This document shows positions 6,077 through 40,789 of a stretch of DNA of 64,000 nt, one piece after another (within the stretch, counting starts at the first letter, position 1; every line of letters begins with the position of its first letter). The translations under genes and the position numbers were made by a program. This DNA is from Escherichia phage MLP3. The DNA is taken from the sequence record OK148440, one strand, 5' to 3'. The notes under the pieces were generated by a model. That model saw only the letters and a list, made by a program, of their open reading frames with translations, made no database searches and was not told the origin of the DNA.

Positions 6077-6079
6077 AAC

Positions 6080-6349
6080 TTACTCCACTGTCGGGAATGG
6101 TTTTAGGTTGTTCATGGCTGTACGAACATCAGCACAGATTTCAGGATCACGATAAGAGAGGAATTTACCATCCTTACCACGAATCATTACATTAGTCCGT
6201 GCTGTTTTATTAGGCAATAAAGAAATCCCTCCAATAAGATGGTTGGTAGGGTGTTGTCCTTGATTAACCTTGTAGTCATGAGTCTGAGCGTCACCATTAA
6301 AGAGATGATCACGAATTTGGATTAAGCTAATCTTCATATTATGCACCAA
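6080..6349 (-). CDS. hypothetical protein, tandem paralog (ARTNV-RG-DGKF-S-RD family)
   Basis: Shares NKTARTNVMIRGKDGKFLSYRD...NLKPFP with adjacent gene. Confidence 0.5.
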   Translation of the reverse strand: MVHNMKISLIQIRDHLFNGDAQTHDYKVNQGQHPTNHLIGGISLLPNKTARTNVMIRGKDGKFLSYRDPEICADVRTAMNNLKPFPTVE

Positions 6350-12054: not shown

Positions 12055-12588
12055 TTATACACCCTTAGATGCAACTACACCATTACTGCCGTTGTATCGA
12101 CCCTTCACTGCATAAGAGTCATCACCAGCGTGAGAGTGTTCGAACATAACCATTTGACCAACACGCATCCCAGCACGAACTCGTAAGCTATGATTATGGG
12201 TAACGTTATGAAATTCAAAGGTTAGTTTACTGCTGTTAAACCCTGCATCAGCCCAACCAGCATGGAGGTGGTTTAAACCACAACGAGCCATTGAGGAGCG
12301 AAGTACAAACAGGCTTGAGATGTTATCTGGAAGGTTAAACTCTTCCATTGAGTGCGCTAAGAAGAATTGCCCCGGAGTGATAACAATACCATCTTCAGGG
12401 ATTTTTACTTCTTTCCACTTGAGGTTTTCTTTAGCATCAATGTCAACAATTCCGTCAGCCTGTTCTTCAACAAGGATAGTATCACCAATACGGATATCCA
12501 CGCTAGCAGCGTTAACATATTTATGCTCCGCATCTAAAAAGCCATTATCAATAACGCTGTGTAATTCTTGAGAACCTAAAAGACTCAT
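12055..12588 (-). CDS. dcd: dCTP deaminase
   Basis: dCTP deaminase/dUTPase-fold motifs VDIRIG, GWADAGF, GRYNGSNG. Confidence 0.8.
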   Translation of the reverse strand: MSLLGSQELHSVIDNGFLDAEHKYVNAASVDIRIGDTILVEEQADGIVDIDAKENLKWKEVKIPEDGIVITPGQFFLAHSMEEFNLPDNISSLFVLRSSMARCGLNHLHAGWADAGFNSSKLTFEFHNVTHNHSLRVRAGMRVGQMVMFEHSHAGDDSYAVKGRYNGSNGVVASKGV

Positions 12589-14572: not shown

Positions 14573-16356
14573 GGACGTGCCTCCCCTTCTTGTGCAAGTA
14601 AGGAAGCTGCATCCTCTCCATTGGTAACGGTAAAAGGATGCTCTTCATCAACTTCATGATCTTCTCGTTCTACAAGACGACCTGTTTCATTGATGTATTT
14701 GGTATAGCAAACCCCTGTCTGTCCATAGTTACGCTCTTTGAGCAGTCGTATGATTGACAAGTTTTTACCTAACCCATCCGCTTGTTTGTTACGTTCAAAA
14801 CCAATAATACACTGACACCAGCGCATCAATGAACGTGAACCAGTAAACTGTACTTCTTTAACCTGACCACCTTCTTCGTGGGGTGCACCACCTGCCGGAG
14901 CGTTCAAGTGAGATAATACAAAAGCAGTGAAGTCTAATTCCTTACACATACCAGCAAGCTCTGAAGCAATCTTGCTGATTTCTGTGTTTACCTCAGATGG
15001 GGTTAAGTGAGATACCAATGCAGTGATGTTATCAAGAATGATAAATTTACACTGATTCTCAACTACCCAAAAGCGAATACACTGCTTAATGTCTTCCCAC
15101 TCGTTCTGCCCAAAGTTGTCATACAAGAAAAACTTATCAGCGTATCGAAGTGCTTCATCTCGTAGCTGGCTTTCTTCGTACTCAACATCCGGTCGGTGGA
15201 ATGGAATAGATGCAGATTTACCTGCAATGTTCTTAACAGACATGCCTACCTTCTCTTCCAAGAAGAAGCCACCACCATTAAAACCATGCTCAAGGCAAAG
15301 CCATGCTACTAGTTCGTGTGCGATTAAGGTTTTACCTGAACCAACACCACCGCCGATTGCAACCATCTCTCCCCAACGAATACCAAAGGTCATGTCGTTA
15401 AGAGTTTTCCACGGATAAGGAATACCCCATTCCGCTTTCTTCAGAGCATCTTCGAGGCAATCAAAAACTGTAACAGCGCCGGCAGGAGATTCCCGCTTAG
15501 CTGAATACTTCAGATTGTTGAAAAGCTCTTGACCTCTCCCTGCAAGTAACATGTCGTTTGCATCTTTGATTTCCTTTTCTTGTCCGTTATAAGTGAACGT
15601 ACCTTTTGGAATCCTTGCAAACTTAACATGCGGGTACAGAGAACGACCCTTAGTTAAAGCAATCTCACCTGCATCATCATTGTCCATGCAGAGTACAATC
15701 TCCTCGAAACCATTAATAAAATCACGGTTTCTTGATAATACAGAAGAGATTGAACCTGCACCGAACGGAAGAGAGACGCAAGCAGGTTTGATGTTAGTTG
15801 CGTTTGTAAACGCGGTAAGTACGTGGAACCCAGACATACAAGAGAGAGGATCTTCAAAGATGAAGAGTTTCTTGTTGTATACGTCACCACGTTGTGCTTG
15901 AGCCATACCAAACAAGTCGGCTTCTTTCACATTACCTACATAATAGAACTTCTTGCTGTCTAGAAGTTTTACTTCATATCCAACAATGTTCCCATCACGT
16001 TCACGAGGGAAGAAGTAGCTGTCAGGAGTTTGACCATCTGTTTGGCTTAAACCGATACGGCATCCATAACGTTCAGATACAGCTTTAGGAATTAAGCGAC
16101 GAGTCAACTCTCCCTGAGGAAGCTCTAAGCAATCGTCTAAGACTTCTCGGAGTTCTTCAGGGGACAGCTCTTTCTTTTCATTAGGAGTGGGCGTCGTTCC
16201 TTTCTCGAAGATTTCATACGCACCACATCTGTTACATGAACCCCACTCCTCACCGGACTCTTCATTTCGGAAGAGAATCATGTGATTGCGGGTCTTATCA
16301 CGACCATGAGAGATACACTCTTTACAGCCTGTGTCTCCCAAAATGATCTTTGACAT
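14566..16356 (-). CDS. primase-helicase (T7 gp4-like; zinc-finger + TOPRIM + DnaB-type helicase)
   Basis: N-terminal CKEC...CNRCG zinc ribbon; Walker [10 protein letters not shown]; helicase motif SHLN. Confidence 0.85.
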
Positions 16357-23678: not shown

Positions 23679-24530
23679 TTATACAATCTGGAGTTTAGAG
23701 GAGAATTTATCCGCTTCTTTAACATCGTTACTGTTGATGATGTTGTGAAGCTTTTCAATTGGAAGGCGAGAGTGAAGTGACATCAATACTTCCATATCAC
23801 AGCCTTGAACAACCTTATCAACTTGCTCATAAACAAACTTGCGGGTTGACTTCTCGCCAATCCAGAAGTTAGAAAGAGAACGATATTCAATACCGTAATC
23901 TTTGTAGCGAATGGCAGAAGCCTTTCCGTATAACTCTTTACGACGAGTATCTTTATCCATGATCACAGCTGGCAAGGACAGGAAGTAATCACACAACACA
24001 CCCAACATCATTTGAGTCTGACGACTAATTTCCAGCGTACCAGTGACGCCAAGGTGAACATGACCGCCAGCAGTACGCAGACCTTTGTCTGTCGCTACTG
24101 GAGATGGGTTTTTCTGACCAGTGAAGGCGTTGAAATCAGGAGTACAACCAAATACAAAGGCTGACGGATGGAAAGATTCCAGCTCTTCTGAAGTGAACAC
24201 ATGAGAGCTAATCCCAAGTGCTGCCTCCATGCCACGTTCATTGAGAACTTTGTTAGTCAGATCAATACCACGCTGAATGTTATCATTAAACGCTTCAAAC
24301 CCTTTCTGTGGGTTAATATCGAACTCGGCCAGAACGTTGTCTTCTTGAAGACGAACATCAGGGGCCAGATCAATTTTGTTGTCTTTAGAGCAGCCCAGCT
24401 TACCAGCCACAGAGGTGATAATACCAGAAGCAGTACGAACAAACATTTCAGGGTCAGAACCAATAAGGAAAGCACGCTTAGTCATTGTAATACTCCACGA
24501 GTTCATCAAAAAGGGAAACAACACGAGCAC
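23679..24530 (-). CDS. second amidoligase-like protein (tentative)
   Basis: FLIGSDPEMFV and GGHVHLGV motifs reminiscent of the E-x-E and HVH motifs of carboxylate-amine ligases. Confidence 0.4.
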   Translation of the reverse strand: MLVLFPFLMNSWSITMTKRAFLIGSDPEMFVRTASGIITSVAGKLGCSKDNKIDLAPDVRLQEDNVLAEFDINPQKGFEAFNDNIQRGIDLTNKVLNERGMEAALGISSHVFTSEELESFHPSAFVFGCTPDFNAFTGQKNPSPVATDKGLRTAGGHVHLGVTGTLEISRQTQMMLGVLCDYFLSLPAVIMDKDTRRKELYGKASAIRYKDYGIEYRSLSNFWIGEKSTRKFVYEQVDKVVQGCDMEVLMSLHSRLPIEKLHNIINSNDVKEADKFSSKLQIV

Positions 24531-26665: not shown

Positions 26666-27028
26666 TTACTCTGCTACCAAAAGGCTCAGAGATTTGCGAA
26701 TGTAGTCAATACTACGGAAGTTTCGATAATTCTCTTGGAAGCGCATCTTTTCAAACTCTGCTTCCTGAAGCTCTACCTCTGCTGCTTTATATCCTGATAA
26801 AGCTAAACTTACCACATCCTGAGGTAAGGTATTACGACGGCGAATAAGATATTTATTCGCTTTTAGTTTACCTTGTGCACGAGCCATTTTGGCCTTTGCC
26901 GCCTTGATACCATGAGAAATCCAAAGCAGTTGCTGTTTCAGATCTTCCTCATCCATACCACCTAAATCATTTGCTACTTTATGCAGCGTAGACAGGTTCA
27001 CATGGCCTTTAATGGGGCGTAGGTTCAT
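26666..27028 (-). CDS. hypothetical protein
   Basis: 120-aa ORF. Confidence 0.5.
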   Translation of the reverse strand: MNLRPIKGHVNLSTLHKVANDLGGMDEEDLKQQLLWISHGIKAAKAKMARAQGKLKANKYLIRRRNTLPQDVVSLALSGYKAAEVELQEAEFEKMRFQENYRNFRSIDYIRKSLSLLVAE

Positions 27029-27192
27029 AACTTCTCCTGTTTGTCACATTGATTGGTTAGCCAGTTGTAAGACCCACTGTTGTTCTTGCTTAACTCGCAA
27101 GATGCAAAAGAGTACATCCTGACAAACCCCACAGTGGCTAAGCAAATAAAGATTGCTGCCAATAAGAATTTAGCTTTCAACTTATTATCCAT
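27025..27192 (-). CDS. small membrane protein (55 aa)
   Basis: ATG at 27192 with GAAGAGG SD; hydrophobic LLAAIFICLATVGFV; stop overlaps next ATG (ATGA); below ORF-track cutoff. Confidence 0.35.
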   Translation of the reverse strand: MDNKLKAKFLLAAIFICLATVGFVRMYSFASCELSKNNSGSYNWLTNQCDKQEKL

Positions 27193-27212
27193 ACAACCTC
27201 TTCTTTGAGCTT

Positions 27213-27237
27213 AAAAAAGGACTCTCCTAAGAGAGCC
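27213..27237 (-). terminator. intrinsic terminator-like hairpin downstream of conserved element R1
   Basis: Minus strand GGCTCTC-TTAG-GAGAGTCC followed by TTTTTT. Confidence 0.45.
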
Positions 27238-27300
27238 AAGCTTTAAGGCCAATTAAATAGATATCACCCAATATCTGTGGATAACCTGCTCTTAAAATAT

Positions 27301-27436
27301 TCTATCCGACGGATGTTCGAGGATTATTCCTCTCCCTAGCATCGGCCCCATACGGGAAAGATTAAATTAAGTTTAGGTTAGTTGAGCCAGAATAGCTCAC
27401 ATAGCCCTCTGATACTCACAAGGGCTATAGATGTTA
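27301..27436 (-). promoter_or_regulatory. conserved ~130-nt element R1 with 8-bp hairpin (copy 1 of 2)
   Basis: About 70 percent identical to 32598..32722; shared blocks TCTATC, TCTCCCTAGC, CTCACATAGCCCTCTGATA-N-CACAAG-GCTATA; hairpin 27401-27408/27421-27428. Confidence 0.5.
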
Positions 27437-27682
27437 CTCTGTGGCTCCGTCGAATCGGAGGATTGCTGCTGGAACAGGGTATACTTCCAGATCTTCATCC
27501 AGTCGGTATAGATGCCCTGTACTTAAATTTACAGCTGTTACTGGCTTAGAGTGGCCTCCAGCCTGTATGGAAGGAACTCTGATAAAGAACTCTTCTGGAT
27601 ATTCAACAGAGTGGAACACACTTCCTGAATAAAGATCTTTTATTTTAGAAGTTTGTTTAGGAGTTTTATCAGCAATTTTCAT
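27434..27682 (-). CDS. small protein, paralog family B (L-x-DL-x-PG-x-VF core)
   Basis: MKI...KDLYSGSVFHSVEYPEEFF; family also at 28803, 29073, 32721, 32946. Confidence 0.5.
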   Translation of the reverse strand: MKIADKTPKQTSKIKDLYSGSVFHSVEYPEEFFIRVPSIQAGGHSKPVTAVNLSTGHLYRLDEDLEVYPVPAAILRFDGATE

Positions 27683-27915
27683 TACAGACCTTTCTTAGCA
27701 CGATCTTTGGCAGTTTTGCCAGTGCGGATACGATGGGAAACATTAACCAGCTCGCCACCTTCGACGATGGTTACGCTTTTGTTTTTCGCAATATCAAACA
27801 CAGTTTTCTCTGTGCCGCCCAGACGAATCTGTTTAGGCTCACTGTGGGTCTGAGTTGATTTAGACTGGAACTGGAACGGCTGACGGATGGCATCAATTGC
27901 GCTAACTTTAGACAT
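27682..27915 (-). CDS. hypothetical protein
   Basis: 77-aa ORF. Confidence 0.45.
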   Translation of the reverse strand: MSKVSAIDAIRQPFQFQSKSTQTHSEPKQIRLGGTEKTVFDIAKNKSVTIVEGGELVNVSHRIRTGKTAKDRAKKGL

Positions 27916-27943
27916 GTTTTTATTACCTTACATTAAAGAGAGA

Positions 27944-28357
27944 TTAAACAACGAATTGGAACGCTTCGTATCCAAACTTATATAAGAAATCGTGTTTGAA
28001 CTTCGTTACACGACCACGGTCACGGAAAGATTTCAGACGGTTACTGAACCCAGCCATCGGCTCAGGGTCAATAGGACTACGAATCTTCATAGCTACAGAG
28101 TGCAGCTTGAAGCGCTTACCAGTGCTACATGCCATCATCACATACTCCATACGAGTAGTCCAGATGTTAAGCACCATACTTGTTTTCTCCGCTGACCAAC
28201 CAGTCTTGCGGGCGATTTCCTTATGGATGTTAAGCTCCAAAGGAAGTGGGAATTGCTTGTTGAATGAAGCCGGATAGAGTTTGACCAGAAGATCAATGTT
28301 TTCTTTATACGTTAAGTAAGCTAATTTCTTGCTTACGTTGGGGAATTTCCCAGACAT
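27944..28357 (-). CDS. ProQ/FinO-domain RNA-binding protein (tentative)
   Basis: N-terminal region LVKLYPASF...PLPLELNIHKEIARKTGWSAEKTSMVLNIWTTRMEY resembles the ProQ/FinO domain. Confidence 0.45.
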   Translation of the reverse strand: MSGKFPNVSKKLAYLTYKENIDLLVKLYPASFNKQFPLPLELNIHKEIARKTGWSAEKTSMVLNIWTTRMEYVMMACSTGKRFKLHSVAMKIRSPIDPEPMAGFSNRLKSFRDRGRVTKFKHDFLYKFGYEAFQFVV

Positions 28358-28390
28358 TTTTGAAGCTCCAAAACAGCGCCGAAAAGAGAG

Positions 28391-28432
28391 GCGTCATAGT
28401 AGCTAAAAGGAGGAGAGAAGAGGGCTTATTTA
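28391..28432 (-). promoter_or_regulatory. bipartite conserved motif GCGTCATAGTAG-N13-AGAAGAGGGCTTAYTTA (copy A)
   Basis: Second copy at 34508..34550; both preceded by a short hairpin; located just upstream (minus sense) of the ProQ-like gene. Confidence 0.4.
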
Positions 28433-28555
28433 CTTGCCTTTTTCTGTCCGTTAATGTACCAGATAACTGAACCGTCAGGCTGTCGTTGACCGAAGCCTTT
28501 CAAGTTAACCATTTCTTCTTCAGAGTAGGCACGTTTTCTCACTGATTTTCTCCTG

Positions 28556-28813
28556 TCAGTAGAAGGTGTGTGTAGAGTCGTCGTTCATAGATAACCAAAC
28601 GAAGAAGACAATCACACAGAAAGCAATAACACCGAGAATTGCAAGGATTATAGTGTTAGCTAATGTGATATCTAACACGCTTTGCAGATACATAAAGAAC
28701 TGTACGACACCACATACCATCAGCACAACCCCAACGACAATGAGGAGCCAATATGTGCAGAGAAGGACTGCATCTAATAGTGATACATACTTTGGATGAT
28801 CTTTATGTCTCAC
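28556..28813 (-). CDS. membrane protein
   Basis: Several hydrophobic helices (LLCTYWLLIVVGVVLMVCGVV; ILAILGVIAFCVIVFFVWL). Confidence 0.45.
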   Translation of the reverse strand: MRHKDHPKYVSLLDAVLLCTYWLLIVVGVVLMVCGVVQFFMYLQSVLDITLANTIILAILGVIAFCVIVFFVWLSMNDDSTHTFY

Positions 28814-29069
28814 TGATCTTTTCCACTAAATCCAGAGTTGCTGATTCAAATACAACACCAACTACCATATTAGGTGCCATATTACGAACGTATCCGCTCT
28901 GCATAGACACGGCCCGAGAGTATTCAGAACCGTTAGAACTTTTGTTTACCTTCATGTAAAGGGTTTGCTCTTTATCTTCTTTCAGAGTAAAGAAAGAGCC
29001 GGGAAGAAGCCTCTGAACAGTCAGAGGGATATCTGCAACATGAGTCTTATTGATAGTAAGAACTGTCAT
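28803..29069 (-). CDS. small protein, paralog family B (divergent)
   Basis: LLPGSFFTLKEDKEQTLYMKV matches family core. Confidence 0.45.
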   Translation of the reverse strand: MTVLTINKTHVADIPLTVQRLLPGSFFTLKEDKEQTLYMKVNKSSNGSEYSRAVSMQSGYVRNMAPNMVVGVVFESATLDLVEKISET

Positions 29070-29072
29070 TGC

Positions 29073-29327
29073 TTATTCCTTAATAGTTGCTTCAGCTTTA
29101 ATAGGAATAACAGCAACATCTTTACGAGGTGCTGTCGCTCGACCTGTGTTAAGGCAGGCTACAAGTCTATGCTCGTCCGCACCCTTGATGCAGAGTCGAG
29201 TTGAGAACTCAGTAGACAGCAAGATGTACAAATCATCATCTTCACTGTTAGGGTACATGAAGCAATCCCCAAGTCGTAAAGCACTGAGAGGTATTGCACT
29301 CTTACCTGCTGGTTTATTAACTTTCAT
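29073..29327 (-). CDS. small protein, paralog family B
   Basis: LSALRLGDCFMYPNSEDDDLYILL matches family core. Confidence 0.5.
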   Translation of the reverse strand: MKVNKPAGKSAIPLSALRLGDCFMYPNSEDDDLYILLSTEFSTRLCIKGADEHRLVACLNTGRATAPRKDVAVIPIKAEATIKE

Positions 29328-29603
29328 TTTACCACCTTTAGTTATGGACCAATTTATGAGAGAACTCTCGGAAGAATGCTTTCATAAATAGGGGGAGGGG
29401 ACGAATCCTCCCATATCCTATTAATTAATATTGCATGTAAGATCTAACAATTCGATGCTGTAGTGGATAGCGTAAAACGCTTACCGGCATTAAACCCAGC
29501 CCATGAGGGGCTTATGTGAATAAAATGCTCAACATTGAGCGGTTAGTTGATAGGAGATCTGAAGTCCTATCTCAAAGGACTCTCGTAAGAATCCTTCACG
29601 ATA

Positions 29604-29870
29604 TTACTTAGTAATAAAGACTGTCACCTTATCCATTACCCAGCCTATCAGCATAAGGAAAGGTAAGAAGAGGATAAAGATCAGCATAAAAGGCCAGAAG
29701 AATATCACCGTCCAAATAGAGTATTCATCAGGCTTACCACTCCATGAGGAATGGAAGAAGTTGTAGAGTGTATTGGTTTTGAAGCACCATTTAACTACAA
29801 TGGCTGCCAACCACCAACCAATAACATAAATCAGGAGGACATACGCTGCTGTAACCATTGACCGTTCCAT
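29604..29870 (-). CDS. membrane protein
   Basis: Hydrophobic helices throughout 88-aa ORF. Confidence 0.45.
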   Translation of the reverse strand: MERSMVTAAYVLLIYVIGWWLAAIVVKWCFKTNTLYNFFHSSWSGKPDEYSIWTVIFFWPFMLIFILFLPFLMLIGWVMDKVTVFITK

Positions 29871-30085
29871 TGATAGTTGCGAGTTACCACGTTTCCGTGG
29901 ATAAGAAAGTGCTGGCGGCGAAGGATATCTTTAACGTTGTAATAGGCAGCGTTACCGAGATGGCCTTCTTTGATAAGCCAACGAAGATTACGAATATCAA
30001 CCAACAGCATTTTTACTTGCTGTTGGCATGAAGTTTGAGCTGCTGTTTCAAGTAGAGCTTTCGTATCAGAATAATGACCGGACAT
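29831..30085 (-). CDS. hypothetical protein
   Basis: 84-aa ORF. Confidence 0.4.
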   Translation of the reverse strand: MSGHYSDTKALLETAAQTSCQQQVKMLLVDIRNLRWLIKEGHLGNAAYYNVKDILRRQHFLIHGNVVTRNYQWNGQWLQQRMSS

Positions 30086-30086
30086 A

Positions 30087-30419
30087 TCACCACTCCTTAC
30101 CTGTTGTTGTCACAGAGCCACCACACAGCTCACCACGGGAGATGAAGTCATAACGTGACCAATCACCTTGGGTAGCCATATCACGATCTGCATAAGCTTT
30201 CTCGTCAACAGCACCGCCATTGGAACAAGAAGCACCGGCATAACGTATATCAACCTCACCACTAGGAATCTTCTCCCCGCTATGCCAACGGGAAACACAG
30301 ACACCTTCTACAGATAATGCACACCATCCATCAGGACGATGCTGTACACAGCCTGTAAGAGCTACACAGGCGATAAAGATACAGGTTAAGGTAATTACAC
30401 CACCCCAACTCATAAGCAC
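30087..30419 (-). CDS. putative lipoprotein
   Basis: Signal peptide ending in lipobox LTGC (ACVALTGC). Confidence 0.5.
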   Translation of the reverse strand: MLMSWGGVITLTCIFIACVALTGCVQHRPDGWCALSVEGVCVSRWHSGEKIPSGEVDIRYAGASCSNGGAVDEKAYADRDMATQGDWSRYDFISRGELCGGSVTTTGKEW

Positions 30420-30430
30420 CTCCTATTTGA

Positions 30431-30520
30431 TTTGGTGGACTATCTGGAATCGAACCAGAAGCTCACTAAGAAAGCAATTCCCACTGTTATAAAAGCACTT
30501 GCCTCAACAGGGATACACTA
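30431..30520 (-). ncRNA. tRNA-like element (non-canonical; possible second tRNA or pseudo-tRNA)
   Basis: Minus-strand sense ends ...TCTGG-TTCGATT-CCAGA-TAGTCCACCA (canonical T-arm and CCA-like end) but no canonical acceptor/D/anticodon fold found by eye. Confidence 0.3.
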
Positions 30521-30551
30521 ACTCTGGTGCCGTACCCATACTAGCCCTAAA

Positions 30552-30627
30552 TGTGGTGCACCCTACAGGACTCGAACCTGTAACCAACGACTTAGAAGGT
30601 CGCTGCTCTGTCCGTTGAGCTAAGGGT
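30552..30627 (-). tRNA. tRNA-Arg (anticodon UCU)
   Basis: 76-nt cloverleaf folded by hand: acceptor GCACCCT/AGGGTGC, D-stem GCTC/GAGC, anticodon stem GCGAC/GTCGT with loop CTTCTAA, T-arm ACAGG-TTCGAGT-CCTGT, encoded CCA. Confidence 0.9.
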
Positions 30628-30638
30628 GCTGAATTTGT

Positions 30639-30848
30639 TTAACTGAAGATACGCAAGGCCACATCGTGACCGATATGACCGGGAACTTTATGCTGTTCTA
30701 TTTTCAAACAGTGTTTACAGATACGAGATACACGAGATTCTTTTCTCTCTACTGGAGTGTCTTTAGCGTGAGTGATATGTAAGTTTTCAGTGACCACCCA
30801 TTCATGTTTACATCCAGAATCTTCGGGCTTTTTCTTACGAAAGAACAT
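30639..30848 (-). CDS. small zinc-ribbon protein
   Basis: CKHEW...CKHC Cys/His pairs. Confidence 0.45.
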   Translation of the reverse strand: MFFRKKKPEDSGCKHEWVVTENLHITHAKDTPVERKESRVSRICKHCLKIEQHKVPGHIGHDVALRIFS

Positions 30849-30856
30849 AACACCCC

Positions 30857-31021
30857 TTAGATCAGATCTGTTTTCTTGTGCTTACCACACACTTTACAGC
30901 GGGAATAGATACGCAACCCCTGTCGCTCTCCTCCAGCAAGACGATGTGTAACCTTCAATTCATAAGTAGAAAGATCTTCCCACTCATGGAAATGAAAGAG
31001 ACGCTTGAACCATTTAATCAT
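30857..31021 (-). CDS. small zinc-ribbon protein (54 aa), paralog of 31031..31216
   Basis: MIKWFKRLFHFHEW...CKVCGKH parallels MIKWLKRVFHCHDW...CKVCGDV; below ORF-track cutoff. Confidence 0.4.
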   Translation of the reverse strand: MIKWFKRLFHFHEWEDLSTYELKVTHRLAGGERQGLRIYSRCKVCGKHKKTDLI

Positions 31022-31030
31022 AATGATTCC

Positions 31031-31216
31031 TTAGATTACATCACGATGACTAACATCACCACACACCTTACACTGAATAACGTAACGTGTGCCCTTGTCA
31101 TTGTTCCCATCTGAATCTGTATAGACCAGAGGACGGGTGTTAATAATCTTCCAATCATGACAATGGAAGACACGCTTTAGCCATTTAATCATACTAAGCA
31201 CACGCCGGTAATTCAA
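31031..31216 (-). CDS. small zinc-ribbon protein
   Basis: HCHDW...CKVCGD motif. Confidence 0.45.
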   Translation of the reverse strand: MNYRRVLSMIKWLKRVFHCHDWKIINTRPLVYTDSDGNNDKGTRYVIQCKVCGDVSHRDVI

Positions 31217-31451
31217 TTAACTGAGGAGTACGACAAGGGCCATCCTCATACACACCTACTAGTGTTGGCATGTAAGGCCCAGCGCACTGGTATTCATCGA
31301 ACAGTTCATTGTAAGTAGGCTTCCACTTCCAAGCCCACACATAACCCATTCGATCAATGGCAATGTAACGAGTGTTCAGAGGAACCTGCATCATCACATC
31401 ACCAACTGCTATTACTTTCGTAATAACTACTGCTCGGAAGTTTGTCTTCAT
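31194..31451 (-). CDS. hypothetical protein
   Basis: 85-aa ORF. Confidence 0.45.
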   Translation of the reverse strand: MKTNFRAVVITKVIAVGDVMMQVPLNTRYIAIDRMGYVWAWKWKPTYNELFDEYQCAGPYMPTLVGVYEDGPCRTPQLIELPACA

Positions 31452-31756
31452 GACTTTGCAGCCTCCATCATTTTATTCATTTTAGCCACACCTTTACGGA
31501 TAAGAGGCATAAATTCATCAGCCAGTTCAGTGGATAAAAGTTTAAGCCCGCCTGATTTAATACCGTTCACCGCCTTCTCAACTTCATCCGACAGCAATGT
31601 CATTGTTAACCACGGGGATTTTATTACCACAGTAAAGCCTGGTTCATACCGCGAGTGACTGTAGGTGAACTCTAAATGAGTAACACCGGGCATCTTAGAC
31701 ATTTGAGCACGGATATCTACATTAGGGTTGCAGCGAGTTGAAGATGAAATTGTCAT
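31448..31756 (-). CDS. hypothetical protein
   Basis: 102-aa ORF. Confidence 0.5.
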   Translation of the reverse strand: MTISSSTRCNPNVDIRAQMSKMPGVTHLEFTYSHSRYEPGFTVVIKSPWLTMTLLSDEVEKAVNGIKSGGLKLLSTELADEFMPLIRKGVAKMNKMMEAAKS

Positions 31757-32094
31757 GGCGCTTTAATCTCAATCTGAACGTTGACGACGAATACAGTATG
31801 GTTTGCACTGTACACTGAAGTGCCTATGATTGGCTTATCATCACTGAGGATTTCAACAGCGTGCTCAAGGTTAATCTTCAGATGAAGACGCCCTGATTCC
31901 ATGAAGAAATCACCAGCACGTATCTCACCGAACTTAGCTGGCACACCGATAGAGGGTATCAGTATGTCAGTGCGACCTTTACGGTCAAATAAACGATTGA
32001 ACATATCAACCTCTCTTGTTAGTTTAAGTAAGAGTTGTCCCTTAATTAAAACAACAAAGGCCACCCCTAAGGGCAGCCTCTTATTTAAGCGCAA
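31753..32094 (-). CDS. hypothetical protein
   Basis: 113-aa ORF. Confidence 0.5.
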   Translation of the reverse strand: MRLNKRLPLGVAFVVLIKGQLLLKLTREVDMFNRLFDRKGRTDILIPSIGVPAKFGEIRAGDFFMESGRLHLKINLEHAVEILSDDKPIIGTSVYSANHTVFVVNVQIEIKAP

Positions 32095-32300
32095 GCACTA
32101 CGCAGTTTGTTATTCAAGAAGCGATCTTCTGCATTATACAGGAATGCATAGAACAACTCTTTTGCTACATCCCGATCGCAATTGAGACATTTAGAGATCT
32201 GTAACAACAAACCATCACGACTATTAGGATGATCAATTATCGCAAGACGAATAATCTCACGAATACCAATGTCATGCTCAGCCGCCATAGAACCAATCAC
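32085..32300 (-). CDS. hypothetical protein
   Basis: 71-aa ORF. Confidence 0.45.
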   Translation of the reverse strand: MIGSMAAEHDIGIREIIRLAIIDHPNSRDGLLLQISKCLNCDRDVAKELFYAFLYNAEDRFLNNKLRSACA

Positions 32301-32457
32301 CCTGACGTTTACGAATGTTAGTTGTCAGACGAAGCATGGCAGACTCAATCTTCAAAGCACCATTTGCTACTGCATCCATACGTTCAGGACGGTTCATACG
32401 TTTGGTTGTCTTTTTCATAATGTTCTCTCTTTATTGATGGAGGCAGGATTGCCAGTT

Positions 32458-32493
32458 AATATAAAGGGAAGCCCTACACGTTAAGGCTTCCGC
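32458..32493 (-). terminator. intrinsic terminator-like hairpin downstream of conserved element R2
   Basis: Minus strand GGAAGCC-loop-GGCTTCC (7 bp) followed by CTTTATATT. Confidence 0.45.
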
Positions 32494-32597
32494 TTGTACA
32501 AACTGTCGAGAACTCTCTACCCCTAGAATGTTCTCTATCCCAAACCGATACATACCCCTACATATCGGAATGCCATTCGAAAATTAACAGGTTTTAG

Positions 32598-32722
32598 TCT
32601 ATCACCGGATGTTTGAGACAAGTCTCTCCCTAGCGGTGAGCCATATGGCGTTGAGATTATAGTTAATTGAGGAACACCCTCACATAGCCCTCTGATAAAC
32701 ACAAGAGCTATAAGTCGATGTT
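32598..32722 (-). promoter_or_regulatory. conserved ~130-nt element R2 with hairpin (copy 2 of 2)
   Basis: Homolog of 27301..27436; hairpin 32684-32691/32704-32711; the single stem mismatch on the plus strand becomes a G-U pair in minus-sense RNA. Confidence 0.5.
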
Positions 32723-32945
32723 ACTTGTTGGTTAGTCGTGCGTTAGGTACAGGTCTGACTACAGTCGATTTACACTCAGAATCACGCTTACCTGTATAAA
32801 GGTTAACAAAATAACTTTTGTTTTCACCATAACACGCAGTACGCATGTAGTATTGAGTTTCATTGTAGTTAAACTGGAAGACTTCACCCGGATTTAGGTC
32901 TCCGAGAGTTACAACCTCTGGCGTACTATCAATGTCAATCTTCAT
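32721..32945 (-). CDS. small protein, paralog family B
   Basis: MKI...LGDLNPGEVFQFNYNETQYYM. Confidence 0.5.
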   Translation of the reverse strand: MKIDIDSTPEVVTLGDLNPGEVFQFNYNETQYYMRTACYGENKSYFVNLYTGKRDSECKSTVVRPVPNARLTNK

Positions 32946-33176
32946 TTAACCACCAATATTAGTCACTTGAACATCAAATACAGGGATAACTTCATGATGT
33001 TCCTGTAACTGGAATAGTGTTCCCTGACGAAGACCAACCACACGATGCATATCATTCAGGCAGGTGTCTGTCTTTAGATAGAGGTGTTCAGAGTTAGTTG
33101 GTAGACGGAATACATCACCCGGACGTAGATCGCTGAGTTTTTTAGTAACAACTAAAGATGGGAGATTAATTTTCAT
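32946..33176 (-). CDS. small protein, paralog family B
   Basis: MKI...LSDLRPGDVFRLPTNSEHLYL. Confidence 0.5.
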   Translation of the reverse strand: MKINLPSLVVTKKLSDLRPGDVFRLPTNSEHLYLKTDTCLNDMHRVVGLRQGTLFQLQEHHEVIPVFDVQVTNIGG

Positions 33177-33364
33177 TTGATTAACACCAAATCAGTACGA
33201 CGTTCGAAGGAAGGGGAGGATTCACCATTCCACTGAACAAGATAACAGAGAACACCATCAATCGTTGTTCTCCGACGAATAACACCTGTAACAGTTCCAC
33301 CAACAAGGCGAACGGTGTCGCCAACGGTAAATTTAACCTTTGATCGCATCTCCTGTTTCCTCAT
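33173..33364 (-). CDS. hypothetical protein
   Basis: 63-aa ORF. Confidence 0.45.
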   Translation of the reverse strand: MRKQEMRSKVKFTVGDTVRLVGGTVTGVIRRRTTIDGVLCYLVQWNGESSPSFERRTDLVLIK

Positions 33365-33638
33365 TCTGGCGTTTAATTTCTTCAGTGAGTTGTTTGTTTA
33401 GATCTTGAATACGCTTAATCTCCCAACCCAAAGAAGCCAAACGATCGTTACGTGCTTCGATTTGTTCCTGCATTTTGAGTAATTTGGAACGAACATCAGC
33501 ATTAAAAACTTCTTCTTGCTTAAGAAGGAACTCGTAACGACGCTTCCAGCTTGCTGATTTATTTCTTAAAATAATAAACCCTAGAGTAGAAACCGTTACA
33601 GTGAGTACGAAAAGGAACTTATAAACCTCTAAAGACAT
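33333..33638 (-). CDS. membrane-anchored coiled-coil protein (spanin- or FtsB-like architecture)
   Basis: N-terminal TM helix FLFVLTVTVSTLGFIIL followed by charged coiled-coil. Confidence 0.45.
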   Translation of the reverse strand: MSLEVYKFLFVLTVTVSTLGFIILRNKSASWKRRYEFLLKQEEVFNADVRSKLLKMQEQIEARNDRLASLGWEIKRIQDLNKQLTEEIKRQNEETGDAIKG

Positions 33639-33839
33639 ATCTTTATCCTCTTAAAGTAAGATATTATAAGAAATATTATTTAGAATTTATTATTTCTAAA
33701 CTTAATTTCTATCAATAATTTTCAGAGGTCTATATACAGTCATTACCTCTGGTCCCAAATCACTTCCACTTTTTACAGAGAAAATCATAAGTGTGTGATT
33801 TATAAGGAAATTTAGTTTGTCAATATTGGCACCTACGAA

Positions 33840-34226
33840 TCAGTCACGGGAGCTATTATTGAACACTAAATCACCACAATACATCGGATTGGTATACCAC
33901 TTTGGCACCCCTTCGCTCTTACTCTGAAAGTATGTACCACTGTATAAAGGCACATAATCTTTCTTCAGTGCACGCCTTGCAAGCCGCTCGCTTTCTCTGA
34001 TTGATTTCTTTATCAGAGGGTTATCATCACGAATTAGCTTTACATAACGCTTAAAAGGTTTCTCCTTCTTTAATAGGACGGGTATCCACTCGAACTGGTT
34101 TCGTTGATTTATAACCTGCTCGGCAGTCAGTTTTCGTTGTGACATTCTGTTTATTACGGTATCCGCTACTAATGCTTTGCAAGCGGTTGGCTGATTCCCT
34201 GCCTCATAATAAATAGTCAATGTCAA
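33840..34226 (-). CDS. SleB/CwlJ-like cell wall hydrolase domain protein (TTG start as in ORF track)
   Basis: LTIYYEAGNQP...ALVADTVINR resembles the Hydrolase_2 (SleB) N-terminal motif. Confidence 0.45.
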   Translation of the reverse strand: MTLTIYYEAGNQPTACKALVADTVINRMSQRKLTAEQVINQRNQFEWIPVLLKKEKPFKRYVKLIRDDNPLIKKSIRESERLARRALKKDYVPLYSGTYFQSKSEGVPKWYTNPMYCGDLVFNNSSRD

Positions 34227-34278
34227 AAGTAGCTGGGCTGTCGTTATCAGAACTTACTACCCCCTTGTTTTACGGGCA

Positions 34279-34307
34279 TAAAAAAGCCCCATCCGAAGAC
34301 GGGGCGA
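34279..34307 (-). terminator. rho-independent terminator
   Basis: Minus strand GCCCCGTC-TTCG-GATGGGGC (8-bp stem, one G-U) followed by TTTTTT. Confidence 0.6.
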
Positions 34308-34360
34308 CCTGAAAGAGTGAACATGACCTCACTCATTTAAGAATCCTCGTAAAGACTCTT

Positions 34361-34386
34361 AAAAAAGCGGCCTCGTTAAAGGCCCG
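34361..34386 (-). terminator. rho-independent terminator
   Basis: Minus strand GGCCT-loop-AGGCC followed by TTTTTT. Confidence 0.5.
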
Positions 34387-34465
34387 GTCAAATGACCATC
34401 CAATAGGGATTGAACCATGCCAATGATTCACAAAGGGAGTTCCCTTTAGGTATCACTAGCTACGC

Positions 34466-34486
34466 AAAAAGCCGCACAAAGGCGGC
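34466..34486 (-). terminator. rho-independent terminator
   Basis: Minus strand GCCGC-CTTTGT-GCGGC followed by TTTTT. Confidence 0.6.
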
Positions 34487-34507
34487 AGACAAAGACGCTC
34501 AAGAAGA

Positions 34508-34550
34508 GCGTCATAGTAGTTGACCACTGGTACAGAAGAGGGCTTACTTA
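34508..34550 (-). promoter_or_regulatory. bipartite conserved motif GCGTCATAGTAG-N14-AGAAGAGGGCTTAYTTA (copy B)
   Basis: Matches 28391..28432; preceded by hairpin GACGCTC-AAGAA-GAGCGTC (34494-34512). Confidence 0.4.
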
Positions 34551-34987
34551 ACTCTTGCTGTTTTGAGTGGGTCAATATATTTTTCAACTCCCCACTTATG
34601 TTTACTATCAGCGTAGAAAACATCTGGTGCACATTGGCTAGTAGTAGGAAATGCTTTCGGTGGCTTAGTGCTACCTTTATTCTTCTGCTTACCTTTAGTG
34701 CGACCGTTACAAAAGATTTCTAAACGCTTTTCTTGTTCCGTTTTCGCCGCCCCGTTGATTAACAAGGAACGCTTGTGATCAGCAAGAAGAAGCGCATCAG
34801 CACGATGAACACGACGACCTAGTACCTTTGGTACAGGAGATTCTTTATGTTCTTGAGCGGCCTGTTTCATAGCCCTGCGTTTAAGGCTACGTTTGCTAAT
34901 ATGGTTAACAGCGGCTGGCTTTTCTTTTTCCAGCTCATTCATAGAGAACACTCGTCCGCCTTTCATGCTGATTTTAGATTTAGCCAT
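34544..34987 (-). CDS. basic hypothetical protein
   Basis: 147-aa Lys/Arg-rich ORF. Confidence 0.5.
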   Translation of the reverse strand: MAKSKISMKGGRVFSMNELEKEKPAAVNHISKRSLKRRAMKQAAQEHKESPVPKVLGRRVHRADALLLADHKRSLLINGAAKTEQEKRLEIFCNGRTKGKQKNKGSTKPPKAFPTTSQCAPDVFYADSKHKWGVEKYIDPLKTARVK

Positions 34988-35057
34988 TGTTTTATTCCTT
35001 TCGCTGATAAATTATATCGTGCAAGCCTTACCACATAGCAAGGCTTAACCAAATAAC

Positions 35058-35267
35058 TTAATCAATTAAACTAAACGATTTCCAACTACGTGTAATTGCT
35101 ACCTTTTCGCCATCAAAGAGAACACTTACAGAGATCAGTTTACCGCGACAACTGGATACCGTGGTAATACGTCCGGTTAATGCCTTACCTTTATTCAGGT
35201 AGTGATAGCGGACACGACGTCCTAACAAACGAGTAGCTTTCTTCTCTAACGTGCTTAAGCTGGTCAT
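35058..35267 (-). CDS. hypothetical protein
   Basis: 69-aa ORF. Confidence 0.45.
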   Translation of the reverse strand: MTSLSTLEKKATRLLGRRVRYHYLNKGKALTGRITTVSSCRGKLISVSVLFDGEKVAITRSWKSFSLID

Positions 35268-35488
35268 TAAATAGCCCCTTTATATTGGAGTGATCTTACA
35301 CGACGATACATAACAGTTGATGCACTAATCGCCGCTTGTTTTCTTTCGTGCTCATGCTGATTCTTTCGAATCTTATCCATCTCGGCATCATTACGACGAC
35401 GTTGTAAGATTCTGCTACATTTGCGATGGTTATTATTAGCACGTGCTTTCTTACAGATAGGGCACAAATGGGATTGAGTTAAGATCAT
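35267..35488 (-). CDS. basic zinc-finger-like small protein
   Basis: CPICKK...HRKC motif; Arg/Lys-rich. Confidence 0.45.
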   Translation of the reverse strand: MILTQSHLCPICKKARANNNHRKCSRILQRRRNDAEMDKIRKNQHEHERKQAAISASTVMYRRVRSLQYKGAI

Positions 35489-35709
35489 TTGCGTAACCCC
35501 AGCTTACGAAGGAATCGGCCTAACTTAGTTTCTTGCGTGATAGTGTAAGTAACAGAGTTATCAATCAAGGCTTGTTCTTGAATCGGCGACGGATACCATT
35601 CACCGGTAAGAATGCATTTGCATTCGATTCCATATTTATCGGTTTTACGATAGGTCATGTTGTTGAGAATGTTACGATACATCTTAACTTCTGTTTTCAG
35701 TTTTGGCAT
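35485..35709 (-). CDS. hypothetical protein
   Basis: 74-aa ORF. Confidence 0.45.
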   Translation of the reverse strand: MPKLKTEVKMYRNILNNMTYRKTDKYGIECKCILTGEWYPSPIQEQALIDNSVTYTITQETKLGRFLRKLGLRK

Positions 35710-35764
35710 GGTGTTTATCTCTTTTTAGTTTCTTTGATTAGCACACTGAATCAATGCACTAGTA

Positions 35765-35797
35765 AAAGAAAAAGGCGCTACCCTTTCGAATAGCGCC
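35765..35797 (-). terminator. rho-independent terminator
   Basis: Minus strand GGCGCTA-loop-TAGCGCC followed by TTTTTCTTTT, downstream of 35817..36728. Confidence 0.55.
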
Positions 35798-35816
35798 TCA
35801 TGTGTTTTATTGTTGG

Positions 35817-36728
35817 TTATGCTGCCAGTTGACGCGCCGCCATAATCTCGGCAGCTTTGCGTAACACTTCCTCTTCTTCCTGCGCAGCTTTCTCATTAGC
35901 TTTGACAGTTGAAGCGTTTGAGATACGACCGCGAAGGTTAGACAATTTTTCAGTCATTTCATTGATCACCTTTTCCATTTCATCGGCGTACGAGTCCAGA
36001 GATTCAAGCTCTTTAGTTGAGGCATTAATCAGGTAGTCATCGCTGATAGAAACAGTTGAAGCGGTTACTTTCTTAAGGAGTGAATCGAAAGTTTTCTTAA
36101 CTTTGCCTACTTCTTCACTCAATGCGATAGTATTGTCAGAAGATGCGCCGTTGCGTTCATCTGCCAGTAGTGCCGCTTCAATACGGATTGCAGCCAGACG
36201 GTCAACCAGTGCATAAATATCCTGATTAAAGTTTTCGTTAACCTTCTGGTTGATCTGGTTTGCTACCGGAACATTGTCGTTGCAACCTTTGTAGAATGCT
36301 GGGTTATCAACCTGCACGTCTTCACCTTTAGCAAAGCGTTCAAAGGAATTAGACCAGCGGGCGCGGTTTTGTTCCATTTTGGCCTTAACTTGTTCCGGTT
36401 TAGCATCCTCTTTCGCTTTCGCTTCACCTTCCAGATTAATCCATTTCTTTTTACCGTTCGCCCCGTCGCTGTTGTACTTGATCGGGGTTAAGAAAGAGAT
36501 GGCAACCGCAATCACGTCTAAGTCACGATAACGCTCAGTTAACAAGAAATCAACCGCCGCCTGCAATACATCCAGTTTCTTACCGTTGGTGCGGAAGTGC
36601 TGCAAATGGCCTAACAGGAAGTTAGAAACATCTTGTTTGATTGCCGCGTTGTTGCTACGAATGTTGTTAGCCAGTGCATTAAAGCCGGATTCGTTAACCA
36701 GATTAAAAACTTTAGCCATGATATTCAC
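35817..36728 (-). CDS. hypothetical protein (303 aa)
   Basis: Long ORF; first gene after the 1.9-kb non-coding gap. Confidence 0.55.
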   Translation of the reverse strand: MNIMAKVFNLVNESGFNALANNIRSNNAAIKQDVSNFLLGHLQHFRTNGKKLDVLQAAVDFLLTERYRDLDVIAVAISFLTPIKYNSDGANGKKKWINLEGEAKAKEDAKPEQVKAKMEQNRARWSNSFERFAKGEDVQVDNPAFYKGCNDNVPVANQINQKVNENFNQDIYALVDRLAAIRIEAALLADERNGASSDNTIALSEEVGKVKKTFDSLLKKVTASTVSISDDYLINASTKELESLDSYADEMEKVINEMTEKLSNLRGRISNASTVKANEKAAQEEEEVLRKAAEIMAARQLAA

Positions 36729-37541: not shown

Positions 37542-37552
37542 TTAAAGAGCGG
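37542..37552 (+). promoter_or_regulatory. TTAAAGAGCGG motif copy 1
   Basis: Exact 11-mer repeated at 37772 and 37908, variant at 38311; followed by TATCAGTGTG. Confidence 0.3.
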
Positions 37553-37771: not shown

Positions 37772-37782
37772 TTAAAGAGCGG
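37772..37782 (+). promoter_or_regulatory. TTAAAGAGCGG motif copy 2
   Basis: Exact 11-mer; followed by TATCAGAGTG. Confidence 0.3.
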
Positions 37783-37907: not shown

Positions 37908-37918
37908 TTAAAGAGCGG
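37908..37918 (+). promoter_or_regulatory. TTAAAGAGCGG motif copy 3
   Basis: Exact 11-mer preceded by AAATTG as in copy 1; followed by TATCATAGTG. Confidence 0.3.
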
Positions 37919-38310: not shown

Positions 38311-38320
38311 TTAAAGAGCA
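38311..38320 (+). promoter_or_regulatory. TTAAAGAGCA variant motif copy 4
   Basis: Variant of the 11-mer. Confidence 0.2.
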
Positions 38321-40405: not shown

Positions 40406-40789
40406 TTCCTTATCCTTTCGGTTGATGTGAATTAAAAACTACGATTGCAACTATATATTAAAGGAAAAACCTGTCAACCACTTATTTTCAAACTATTTCA
40501 TAACTCACTGAATATAAAAGGAATTTAATTTACTAAACTTTCTTGTTCAGAGATACAGCTTACCAAATAGATGTTATTTTATAACACTTACAGAACGGGT
40601 AGCAGACCAACGGGATAGATAGATGGGTAAGACGTGCCGCATAGGTTAGCCAATGGGTAAGAAGCCTAACGAGGAAGGGGAAACGGGTAGGATATAATGT
40701 AAGTTAGTTACAGTTAACAGGTCAGACCATGCGGTAATAAATTACCAGTCAATTCGCTACTATCGTAGCTCATATCAAATTCCTACTCA

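Follow-up and report, generated by a model that had tools for sequence, protein, structure and literature searches.

The window analyzed here, a stretch of 64,000 nucleotides (nt) from Escherichia phage MLP3 (sequence record OK148440), carries two copies of a two-block motif whose anatomy, conservation, and possible function are the subject of this report. On the + strand, the motif reads GCGTCATAGTAG-N13-AGAAGAGGGCTTA at 28391-28428 (copy A) and GCGTCATAGTAG-N14-AGAAGAGGGCTTA at 34508-34546 (copy B), the two places where an earlier reading made without database searches (hereafter the sequence-only reading) had located it. There is no third copy in the window, each half-block has exactly two exact copies there, and none of 100 dinucleotide shuffles of the window gave any two-block match. 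The genes around both copies are carried by the minus strand, which is the transcribed strand in this region. Read in that sense, the motif corresponds to a module that, to judge from the gene order, lies in the untranslated RNA following two early cistrons.

Escherichia phage IME267 matches the region 27900-35100 at 97.5% identity, other SU7-like phages (Gordonclarkvirinae, Suseptimavirus) match it at 91-97%, and members of Kuravirus (phiEco32, SU10, NJ01, and others) match it in part at ~82% identity. By these matches the window phage is assigned to Suseptimavirus, as an IME267/SU7-like relative of phiEco32. According to the gene classes described for SU10 and phiEco32, the region is early and is transcribed by the sigma-70 polymerase of the host (PMC4281155, PMC8948821).

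Copy A directly follows a 38-amino-acid (aa) early gene homologous to phi32_94 (28426-28542, minus strand; PHROG 14557, E=1e-27), which is annotated as a coding sequence in both IME267 and phiEco32 and whose stop codon TAA (28426-28428, minus strand) lies within block 2. Directly downstream is a ProQ/FinO-like gene (27944-28357, minus strand; Pfam PF04352, E=3.7e-6, with a score of 27.3 bits that is barely over the cutoff of 27). Copy A had been placed just upstream of this gene in the minus sense, and the ATG of the open reading frame (ORF) is indeed 33 nt past it. Copy B follows a 147-aa early gene homologous to phi32_120 (34544-34987, minus strand; PHROG 11641; a homologue in 97 phage records), and the stop codon TAA of this gene (34544-34546, minus strand) again lies within block 2. 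Comparison of the gene-94 and gene-120 products revealed no relatedness.

In minus sense, a module begins with a stop codon, continues with a pyrimidine tract poor in G and with the invariant UACUAUGACGC, and ends with a short hairpin that has the 5′ arm GACGC, which is formed by the last five bases of the core (block 1). Thus, the hairpin that the sequence-only reading had seen before block 1 in the + sense is present and in fact overlaps that block, with GCGTC being one of its arms. Block 2, judged by its position, is the stop codon of the upstream gene joined to the start of the pyrimidine tract.

At copy A the minus strand reads ...AAA TAA GCCCTCTTCTCTCCTCCTTTTAGC TACTATGACGC C-TCTCTTTTC-GGCGCT GTTTTGGAGCTTCAAAAATG. 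The pyrimidine tract GCCCTCTTCTCTCCTCCTTTTAGC (28402-28425) contains just three purines, located at its ends, and is followed by the 11-nt core TACTATGACGC (28391-28401) and by the hairpin GACGCC/UCUCUUUUC/GGCGCU (28375-28395), which has four G-C pairs, one G·U pair, and one A·C mismatch (about -5 kcal/mol). Next to this hairpin come GUUUUGG and then GGAG, which is the ribosome-binding site of the ProQ-like gene. At copy B the same strand reads ...AAG TAA GCCCTCTTCTGTACCAGTGGTCAAC TACTATGACGC TC-TTCTT-GAGCGTC TTTGTCT GCCGCCTTTGTGCGGC TTTTT..., wherein the spacer GCCCTCTTCTGTACCAGTGGTCAAC (34519-34543) is a short pyrimidine tract and then ...TCAAC, the 11-nt core occupies 34508-34518, and the hairpin GACGCUC/UUCUU/GAGCGUC together with UUUGUCU (34487-34512) forms the first terminator-like site, with 7 base pairs (bp) and a stability of -11.3 kcal/mol. 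The coordinates of this hairpin in the + sense (GACGCTC/TTCTT/GAGCGTC) are 34494-34512.

In both window copies a U-run follows the hairpin. When intrinsic terminators are defined by a G+C-rich stem of at least 5 bp, a loop of 3-8 nt, and a subsequent U-run, copy B has these features (7-bp stem, 5 U in 8), and the terminator scan makes no call for copy A (4 G-C pairs plus the G·U pair, 4 U in 8). As the sequence-only reading had proposed, copy B lies between a gene end, the stop of the 147-aa ORF, and three further terminator-like hairpins (34471-34486, 34369-34384, and 34286-34305). The nearest of these, GCCGCCUUUGUGCGGC-UUUUU (34466-34486, minus strand, with its hairpin at 34471-34486), is kept 3′ of site B in all relatives examined, and the other two terminator-like hairpins (both minus strand) lie within a ~300-nt non-coding stretch past copy B. 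In the GenBank record of SU7, a “terminator” feature overlaps the stretch homologous to the copy B hairpin, and the two annotated promoters of the region lie elsewhere.

To assess conservation, we compiled 31 distinct modules (15 from site A and 16 from site B) from 20-odd genomes and contigs representing both genera. Nearly all relatives examined have the core in this pair of positions, once behind the phi32_94 homologue and once behind the phi32_120 homologue. Of the 31 modules, 26 keep TACTATGACGC intact, four others carry TACTGT for TACTAT, site B of E20-1 has CACTACGACGC, and ACT..GACG is unchanged in every one. The sequence-only reading would have counted a lack of conservation in related phages against its proposal, and such conservation is evident. 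A 51-nt query round copy A matches ~91 phage records at 90-100% identity, spanning both genera and the shorter Bas93/94 genomes, and the window version of copy B occurs in 19 records, all of Suseptimavirus type. Kuravirus genomes carry a diverged second copy 3′ of the phi32_120 homologue (...TAGTAGGAATATAGCCCCCTCTTTTAG TACTGTGACGC T-CTTTCTGT-AGCGTC).

A genome-wide search for further copies had also been proposed. With up to 4 mismatches and spacings of 10-19 nt, the complete IME267 genome has two copies and phiEco32 has one, and neither these settings nor a relaxed core revealed extra copies in the window, IME267, or phiEco32. A scan of IMG/VR with the bipartite pattern returned three contigs, all phiEco32-like. 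The 89 IMG/VR matches to a core-plus-arm pattern, about the chance number by our estimate, were not used.

Conservation of the core at site A exceeds that of the coding sequence beside it. Identity of the window to phiEco32 is 95% from the stop codon to GACGC, 79% in the upstream coding sequence, and 47% over the next 80 nt. Directly 5′ of the core is either ...CCTCYTTTTAG or ...TCAAC. All versions of site A have at most one G in the 20 nt before the core, and variants of the pyrimidine tract are mostly exchanges between C and T. The gap from GCCCTCTTCT to TACTATGACGC is 13 nt at phiEco32 site A, 14 nt at window copy A, and 15 nt at window copy B, and at Kuravirus site B nothing corresponding to block 2 is present at that distance. 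The fixed spacing claimed for the motif therefore breaks down outside this genus. Because block 2 is the stop codon plus the tract, and because its spacing varies, the motif is not a fixed-spacing bipartite promoter.

The position of the module is maintained when neighboring genes change. Where genes have been gained upstream of site B (Paul, ev_rybdy3, and Ptacy1479), the module still directly follows an upstream stop codon, in untranslated sequence, and retains its hairpin, and the same holds at site A where the ProQ-like gene has been gained downstream. This gene is present in the Suseptimavirus-type genomes examined, whereas Kuravirus genomes have a phi32_93 homologue in its place. The block between the two sites ranges from about 4 to 7.5 kilobases (kb) across relatives.

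The two arms of the hairpin vary in different ways. The 5′ arm GACGC (plus one or two pyrimidines) is constant, the exception being the last core base at site B of an IMG/VR contig that we call L010. Counting by script, since MAFFT leaves the 3′ arms out of register, we find that site A has C-G as pair 6, with U-A in its place at site B and at L010 site A, and that pair 7 is U-A or U·G at Kuravirus site A and C-G at Suseptimavirus site B. Loops of 5-11 nt are pyrimidine-rich in every module (UUCUU, UCUCUUUUC, CUUUCUGU, and similar). Predicted stabilities are -11.3 kcal/mol at Suseptimavirus site B, -5.2 kcal/mol at Suseptimavirus site A, and -5 to -8 kcal/mol in Kuravirus. Hairpins followed by a U-run are confined to Suseptimavirus and L010 site A.

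The hairpin has a stability of ~0 kcal/mol at both sites of Ptacy1479 and at L010 site B, and the core is nevertheless retained. Thus, the core is the primary conserved unit and the hairpin is secondary. Likewise, because the 5′ arm is kept in these modules though the 3′ arm loses pairing, the 5′ arm must be constrained as sequence. The variable spacing between the arms fits better with a single-stranded fold than with a dimeric site on duplex DNA. Folds of the whole region are unremarkable, with z-scores of +0.5 to -2.0.

Similarity between sites A and B runs past the core, through TTTGCGTAG and then GGGAAYTCCC, which indicates that the two sites are paralogous modules. The site A module of L010 mixes A-type and B-type features, so sequence has moved between the sites. 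In this contig (IMG/VR 2700988942; sites at 6069-6130 and 12375-12470), site B has no hairpin and a changed last core base (TACTGTGACGT), and site A has gained a B-type perfect hairpin with a U-run, which looks like a swap or a compensation between A and B. Another departure is found in E20-1, wherein the phi32_120 homologue (14749-15291, homologous to window 34460-34987) does not have the usual stop codon and, as annotated at 180 aa, continues across both terminator hairpins as well as the mutated core, CACTACGACGC. These natural variants, E20-1 and L010, suggest that a phage may do without one of its two copies.

Farther upstream, sigma-70-type promoter matches lie on the minus strand at 40477, 38406, 37991, 37832, and 37667. 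The last four of these are each followed, about 85-115 nt past the -35 hexamer, by an exact rrn-type boxA, YGCTCTTTAA (38311-38320, 37908-37917, 37772-37781, and 37542-37551, minus strand). These are the only exact copies in 64 kb, and all lie on the same strand within 800 nt. One of them, CGCTCTTTAACAATTTATCA, agrees at 19 of 20 positions with the boxA region of the Escherichia coli rrnH leader (UGCUCUUUAACAAUUUAUCA), and one phiEco32 copy resembles the boxA of the rrnH 16S-23S spacer. The elements are conserved in every relative checked (phiEco32, IME267, Bas93, ECBP2, and metagenomic relatives). The promoter-distal boxA is preceded by a boxB-like hairpin, which shows compensatory changes among relatives, and is followed by an untranslated leader of ~800 nt. 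The presence of such leaders implies antitermination of early transcripts by means of the host Nus factors. This would explain how polymerase passes the copy B terminators and makes a control signal downstream plausible. Early transcription in these phages appears to be built for regulated read-through.

Starting from the observed anatomy, strand, conservation, hairpin covariation, and terminator-like character of copy B, we infer that the element acts at the RNA level, that a factor binds it, and that read-through is affected. In our judgment, the motif is probably an RNA-level element linked to a terminator rather than a promoter. An action on RNA is suggested by the position of the module after a stop codon, by a hairpin whose loop varies, by a pyrimidine bias confined to the transcribed strand, and by the link to a terminator. 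The strand-specific bias and the variable loop length suggest recognition on RNA and not on duplex DNA.

A more specific proposal, which we advance tentatively, is that the module serves as a factor-recognized stop-or-read-on signal at the ends of two early sub-operons. A trans-acting factor from phage or host, probably a protein, would recognize the core sequence-specifically. As the recognized stretch and the hairpin 5′ arm overlap, binding of the factor would control hairpin formation and hence whether early transcription stops or reads through at control points after the phi32_120 homologue and after the phi32_94 homologue. A fixed 5′ arm with a decaying 3′ arm is the pattern to be expected, by analogy, where a recognition site overlaps a terminator arm. 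The extended ORF of E20-1 is compatible with this proposal in that translation might replace the lost read-through signal by keeping the hairpins from forming. We speculate, giving the idea rather little weight, that virulent phiEco32-like phages have an undescribed switch for read-through and that the motif is its cis site. Polymerase already modified at the rrn-type boxA leaders would meet a stop-or-go signal (UACUAUGACGC plus hairpin) at the end of the immediate-early block (after gene 120) and again at the end of the delayed-early block (after gene 94), and a core-binding factor would time the early genes downstream.

Several points weigh against the proposed stop-or-read-on signal. Kuravirus hairpins have a stem but only 1-3 U in 8, so that the hairpin there is not itself an intrinsic terminator, and no canonical terminator follows Kuravirus site A. 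The predicted accessibility of UACUAU (0.47) is close to the regional mean (0.46). The covariation consists of two loop-proximal pairs among closely related sequences, and recombination between A and B, as at L010 site A, could inflate the apparent conservation. Candidates for a trans-acting factor among the genes upstream of site B are all of “unknown” function by Pfam and PHROGs, and an AlphaFold model of the gene-120 product is of low quality (predicted local distance difference test score 58, predicted template modeling score 0.20). Nor do these data formally tell a site on RNA from one on single-stranded or duplex DNA.

One alternative is that the two modules encode sibling small RNAs (sRNAs) derived from 3′ untranslated regions (UTRs). 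Such RNAs, of which CpxQ and RaiZ are known examples, would begin at the stop codon and end at the hairpin or terminator, would be set free by processing or termination, and would use the core as a seed for pairing with a host or phage target. For this phage the predicted size is about 53-56 nt, compared with about 90-105 nt for Kuravirus, and the ProQ/FinO-like protein might assist in Suseptimavirus. The anatomy in this phage is suitable, with a start at a stop codon, a conserved segment, and an end formed by a hairpin and U-run, as are two siblings with only the core in common and a ProQ/FinO-domain gene next after copy A. However, no pairing partner was found in the phage in either RNA sense, with the best duplex (-12.8 kcal/mol) being weaker than those of shuffled cores (-15.6 +/- 1.3 kcal/mol), and the rrnH operon offers no trans-pairing partner beyond shuffled controls. 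A 71-nt query on both strands has no match at E<=10 in 5,426 E. coli genomes, a search that addresses longer matches. These partner searches argue mildly against sRNAs. In addition, pairing is predicted for the GACGC half of the seed (unpaired probability 0.14) and no particular accessibility for the remainder, Kuravirus site A does not have a terminator to set a 3′ end, and the Kuravirus genomes examined have no ProQ-like gene there. We consider sRNAs an unlikely explanation.

The motif might instead be a DNA-level site, either one bound or nicked by a phage protein or a recombination linker through which the variable early block between B and A is swapped. An asymmetric 11-bp invariant that outlives loss of the hairpin has the look of a protein site, and we take the core to bear some likeness to the nick sites of HUH-type replication initiators (pMV158 TACTACGAC). 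Exchange at these positions is suggested by the chimeric L010 site A, by the varying length of the early block, and by Kuravirus megablast matches to the window that begin at 28385, inside the copy A hairpin, which places a break in the homology detectable by this method at that point. On the other hand, arm spacings of 5-11 nt, the strand-specific pyrimidine bias, and the constant position after a stop codon are poorly accommodated by a DNA site. Pfam identifies no nickase, Rep protein, or recombinase among 13 neighboring or upstream early ORFs, with a Rep_1 hint (E=0.02, 14.8 bits against a cutoff of 33.2 bits) amounting to noise. A passive recombination linker would not be expected to be 100% invariant with such sharp edges. 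A site of this kind seems improbable to us.

It is also doubtful that the motif has no function of its own, as would be the case if a duplicated intergenic or terminator module had been homogenized by gene conversion. The likeness of A and B past the core and the exchange visible in L010 are as this explanation predicts, but the conservation is sharp-edged and exceeds that of neighboring coding sequence across genera. In a variant of this idea, an AUG or GUG in the core starts a short ORF for ribosomes that re-initiate about 25-30 nt past the stop codon. ATG or GTG is indeed present in the core of 30 of the 31 versions, 25-31 nt after the stop codon, and in most Kuravirus site A versions the end of the short ORF overlaps the start of phi32_93. 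Nonetheless, this ORF comprises only 5-30 codons, its frame shifts with indels, and neither a conserved peptide nor a Shine-Dalgarno sequence accompanies it. A coding function was rejected because there is no conserved frame and the peptides are unrelated beyond MT(L/P). An origin of the motif in the host was likewise rejected, given the lack of a match in the 5,426 E. coli genomes.

The sequence-only reading had favored a promoter for a phage-encoded or modified polymerase, or else a regulator-binding site. The general notion of a sequence-specific recognition site stands, but we found neither a -35 element, nor a TG extension, nor the gp36 consensus, and a promoter now seems very unlikely. 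The version considered here is a single -10-like element (TTTTAG/TCAAC-TACTAT) used by phage-modified RNA polymerase, such as the sigma-70 holoenzyme with gp79 displacing region 4. Copy A would then precede a gene with a sensible 33-nt leader, the mapped promoters of this phage group are single-element (PMC8948821), and residual sigma-70 activity is seen in the presence of gp79 (PMC12276001). The hexamer TAnnnT is matched by TACTAT, as well as by the commonest variant TACTGT, which keeps the T, A, and T, for a total of 30 of the 31 modules (CACTAC in E20-1 site B), a weak feature when taken alone.

The remaining evidence points away from such a promoter. The hexamers at the -35 position in four module types are CCCTCT, AGGAAT, TCTCCA, and CCTCTT, the bases before TACTAT are TAG, AGC, or AAC, no upstream element is common to Kuravirus sites A and B, and a sigma-70 scan is silent. 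Neither the invariant GACGC 3′ of the hexamer, which is not a promoter feature, nor the covariation of the hairpin would be explained. At copy B, a start 7 nt past the hexamer would fall inside the hairpin 5′ arm, with a terminator within about 10-45 nt, and E20-1 alters exactly both T positions of the hexamer while keeping the rest. On the + strand, no convincing promoter hexamers were seen by eye, and no U-run follows the hairpin in that sense. Between site B and the next genes, neither a scan nor reading by eye identified a convincing promoter.

The phage sigma factor gp36 is the only one in this group with mapped promoters, which have the consensus tAATGTAtA (PMC8948821, PMC12276001) and whose transcripts start 6-8 nt downstream of the element (PMC8948821). 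The motif does not match this consensus and is missing from the SU10 promoters in S2 Table of PMC4281155. In the window, exact TAATGTATA occurs only at 425, 496, 6997, and 50099, none of which is near the motif, and the nearest element with one mismatch (28306-28314) is inside the ProQ-like gene and away from the motif.

An RNA processing site, with endonuclease cleavage in or beside UACUAU that leaves a stabilizing 5′ hairpin on the downstream RNA and exposes the upstream RNA to decay, is about as poor a prospect: the hairpin starts directly 3′ of the invariant single-stranded part, the element lies between cistrons of a long early operon, and this is the only reading that needs no U-run after the hairpin, but the core departs from the RNase E preference (RN↓WUU, with U at +2), RNase III would need longer stems, and Rfam matches at the motif are noise. 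The sole Rfam match there is RNaseP_arch (13 bits, E=2.2, compared with a gathering score of 84 bits). Across 27000-36000, the only real match to Rfam 15 at E<=5 is a tRNA-Arg gene, and no tRNA or tRNA-like element was found at the motif.

Other features of this region are relevant to the early transcripts. A strong terminator-like hairpin at 35772-35799 (minus strand; 12 bp, then a T-run), upstream of copy B and flanked by the homologues of phi32_124 and phi32_123, lacks the conserved core and would be another read-through point for the early polymerase. Past copy B, ~300 nt (34230-34470, minus strand) have no convincing ORF and include an sRNA-like unit, AGGATTCTTAAATGAGTGAGGTCATGTTCACTCTTTCAGGTC plus GCCCCGTCTTCGGATGGGGC-T6. 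The AGGATTCTTA box of this stretch recurs near 29595 and 29380 with one or two mismatches, and Kuravirus has the adhesin gene phi32_119 at the same position. After site A, a second hairpin, GCGTAGGGAATTCCCTCTACGC, with the 10-bp palindrome GGGAATTCCC, is fully conserved in all Kuravirus genomes examined (about 23990-24030 in phiEco32). Its homologue in the window, GGGAAATTCCCC (28338-28353), constitutes codons 3-6 of the ProQ-like gene. Because this sequence is now coding, insertion of the ProQ-like gene reused part of an old intergenic module.

Two paralogous non-coding stretches of ~200 nt each lie on the minus strand at 27200-27445 and 32480-32730. Both open with AGTAACATC..TATAGCYCTTGTG..TATCAGAGGGCTATGTGAG and later share GCTAGGGAGAG..AACATCCG, and the former ends in a strong terminator-like hairpin plus T6. 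These may be phage non-coding RNAs. Rfam gives only one weak match for them, to STnc100 (E=0.33).

The element is real and deeply conserved within the coliphages of Gordonclarkvirinae, and it is undescribed in the literature that we searched. The motif strings were found in no phage paper, and “boxA” together with “phiEco32” in none, in searches that did not cover the two primary phiEco32 papers (PMC2587145, PMC3275717). The promoter and terminator table for SU10 (PMC4281155) does not list the element. Given that phiEco32 is a model for phage takeover of host transcription through the gp36 sigma factor and gp79, it is pertinent that its published regulatory map contains promoters only, and that the papers searched do not address how host polymerase crosses ~27 kb of terminator-studded early genes. 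The 11-nt core is a strong candidate for a missing control point in this early program. If it proves to be only the recombination-homogenized flank of a terminator, its practical value would be smaller, namely as a mark of a mosaic junction and as a warning not to call every two-block repeat a promoter.

Comparison with known systems reveals partial likenesses. The middle and late promoters recognized by gp36 belong to the same phage group and, like the motif, have a single conserved element of similar length, but the motif has another sequence (at most 4 of 9 matches), is located in the early region, and is contiguous with a hairpin. The 3′-UTR sRNAs of enterobacteria that associate with ProQ or Hfq share with the motif the stop-codon start, a conserved segment, and the hairpin with U-run, and the motif also has a ProQ/FinO gene adjacent. 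The likeness fails in that the search for a target was negative, one half of the seed is predicted to be paired, and Kuravirus genomes examined have no ProQ-like gene here.

Short conserved intergenic cassettes at mosaic junctions are known as PeSL cassettes in T4-type phages and as boundary or linker sequences in lambdoid phages. In similar fashion, the motif cassettes with their stem-loop flank a variable early block, homology breaks off at copy A, and some modules are chimeric. PeSLs carry a recognizable early sigma-70 promoter, which the motif does not have, and there are only two copies of the motif per genome.

The nutL and nutR sites of lambda (boxA plus boxB) are likewise two same-sense copies in early units with a hairpin beside a conserved single-stranded block, and one copy of the motif, like nutR after cro, directly follows the stop codon of a first gene ahead of terminators. 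The 5′ arm and loop at site B read CGCUCUU(U), which is boxA-like, and site A reads CGCCUCU... with 5 of 10 matches to boxA. However, a nut site with a CGCUCUUUA-like boxA and a GNRA-like boxB loop is not present, given that the boxA-like 7-mer occurs at site B only. Use of the hairpin as boxA was also rejected, with YGCTCTT not enriched in the window (22 observed, 17.7 expected). Furthermore, the loop of the motif is pyrimidine-rich and variable, in contrast to the purine-rich boxB pentaloop, and the invariant UACUAUGA has no counterpart in nut. The true boxA elements of this phage, which come with boxB-like hairpins, are located away from the motif, shortly past the early promoters. The read-through switch proposed here would be analogous to lambda N/nut in function, with an unrelated site and factor.

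In protein-controlled attenuators, the protein-binding site and an intrinsic terminator overlap in the 5′ arm of the latter, as in the RAT (ribonucleic antiterminator)-terminator of BglG, LicT, and SacY and in PyrR sites. The motif departs from RAT attenuators in that no alternative hairpin can be drawn and no CAT/PRD, PyrR, or similar protein was found, and from attenuators in general in that the Kuravirus hairpin has no U-run and the motif is located at cistron ends inside an operon rather than in a 5′ leader. Nevertheless, as in attenuators, the conserved sequence of the motif is 5′ of a terminator-like hairpin and overlaps its 5′ arm, that arm is held to its sequence and the 3′ arm only to complementarity, and the whole is located in untranslated RNA before genes that need read-through.

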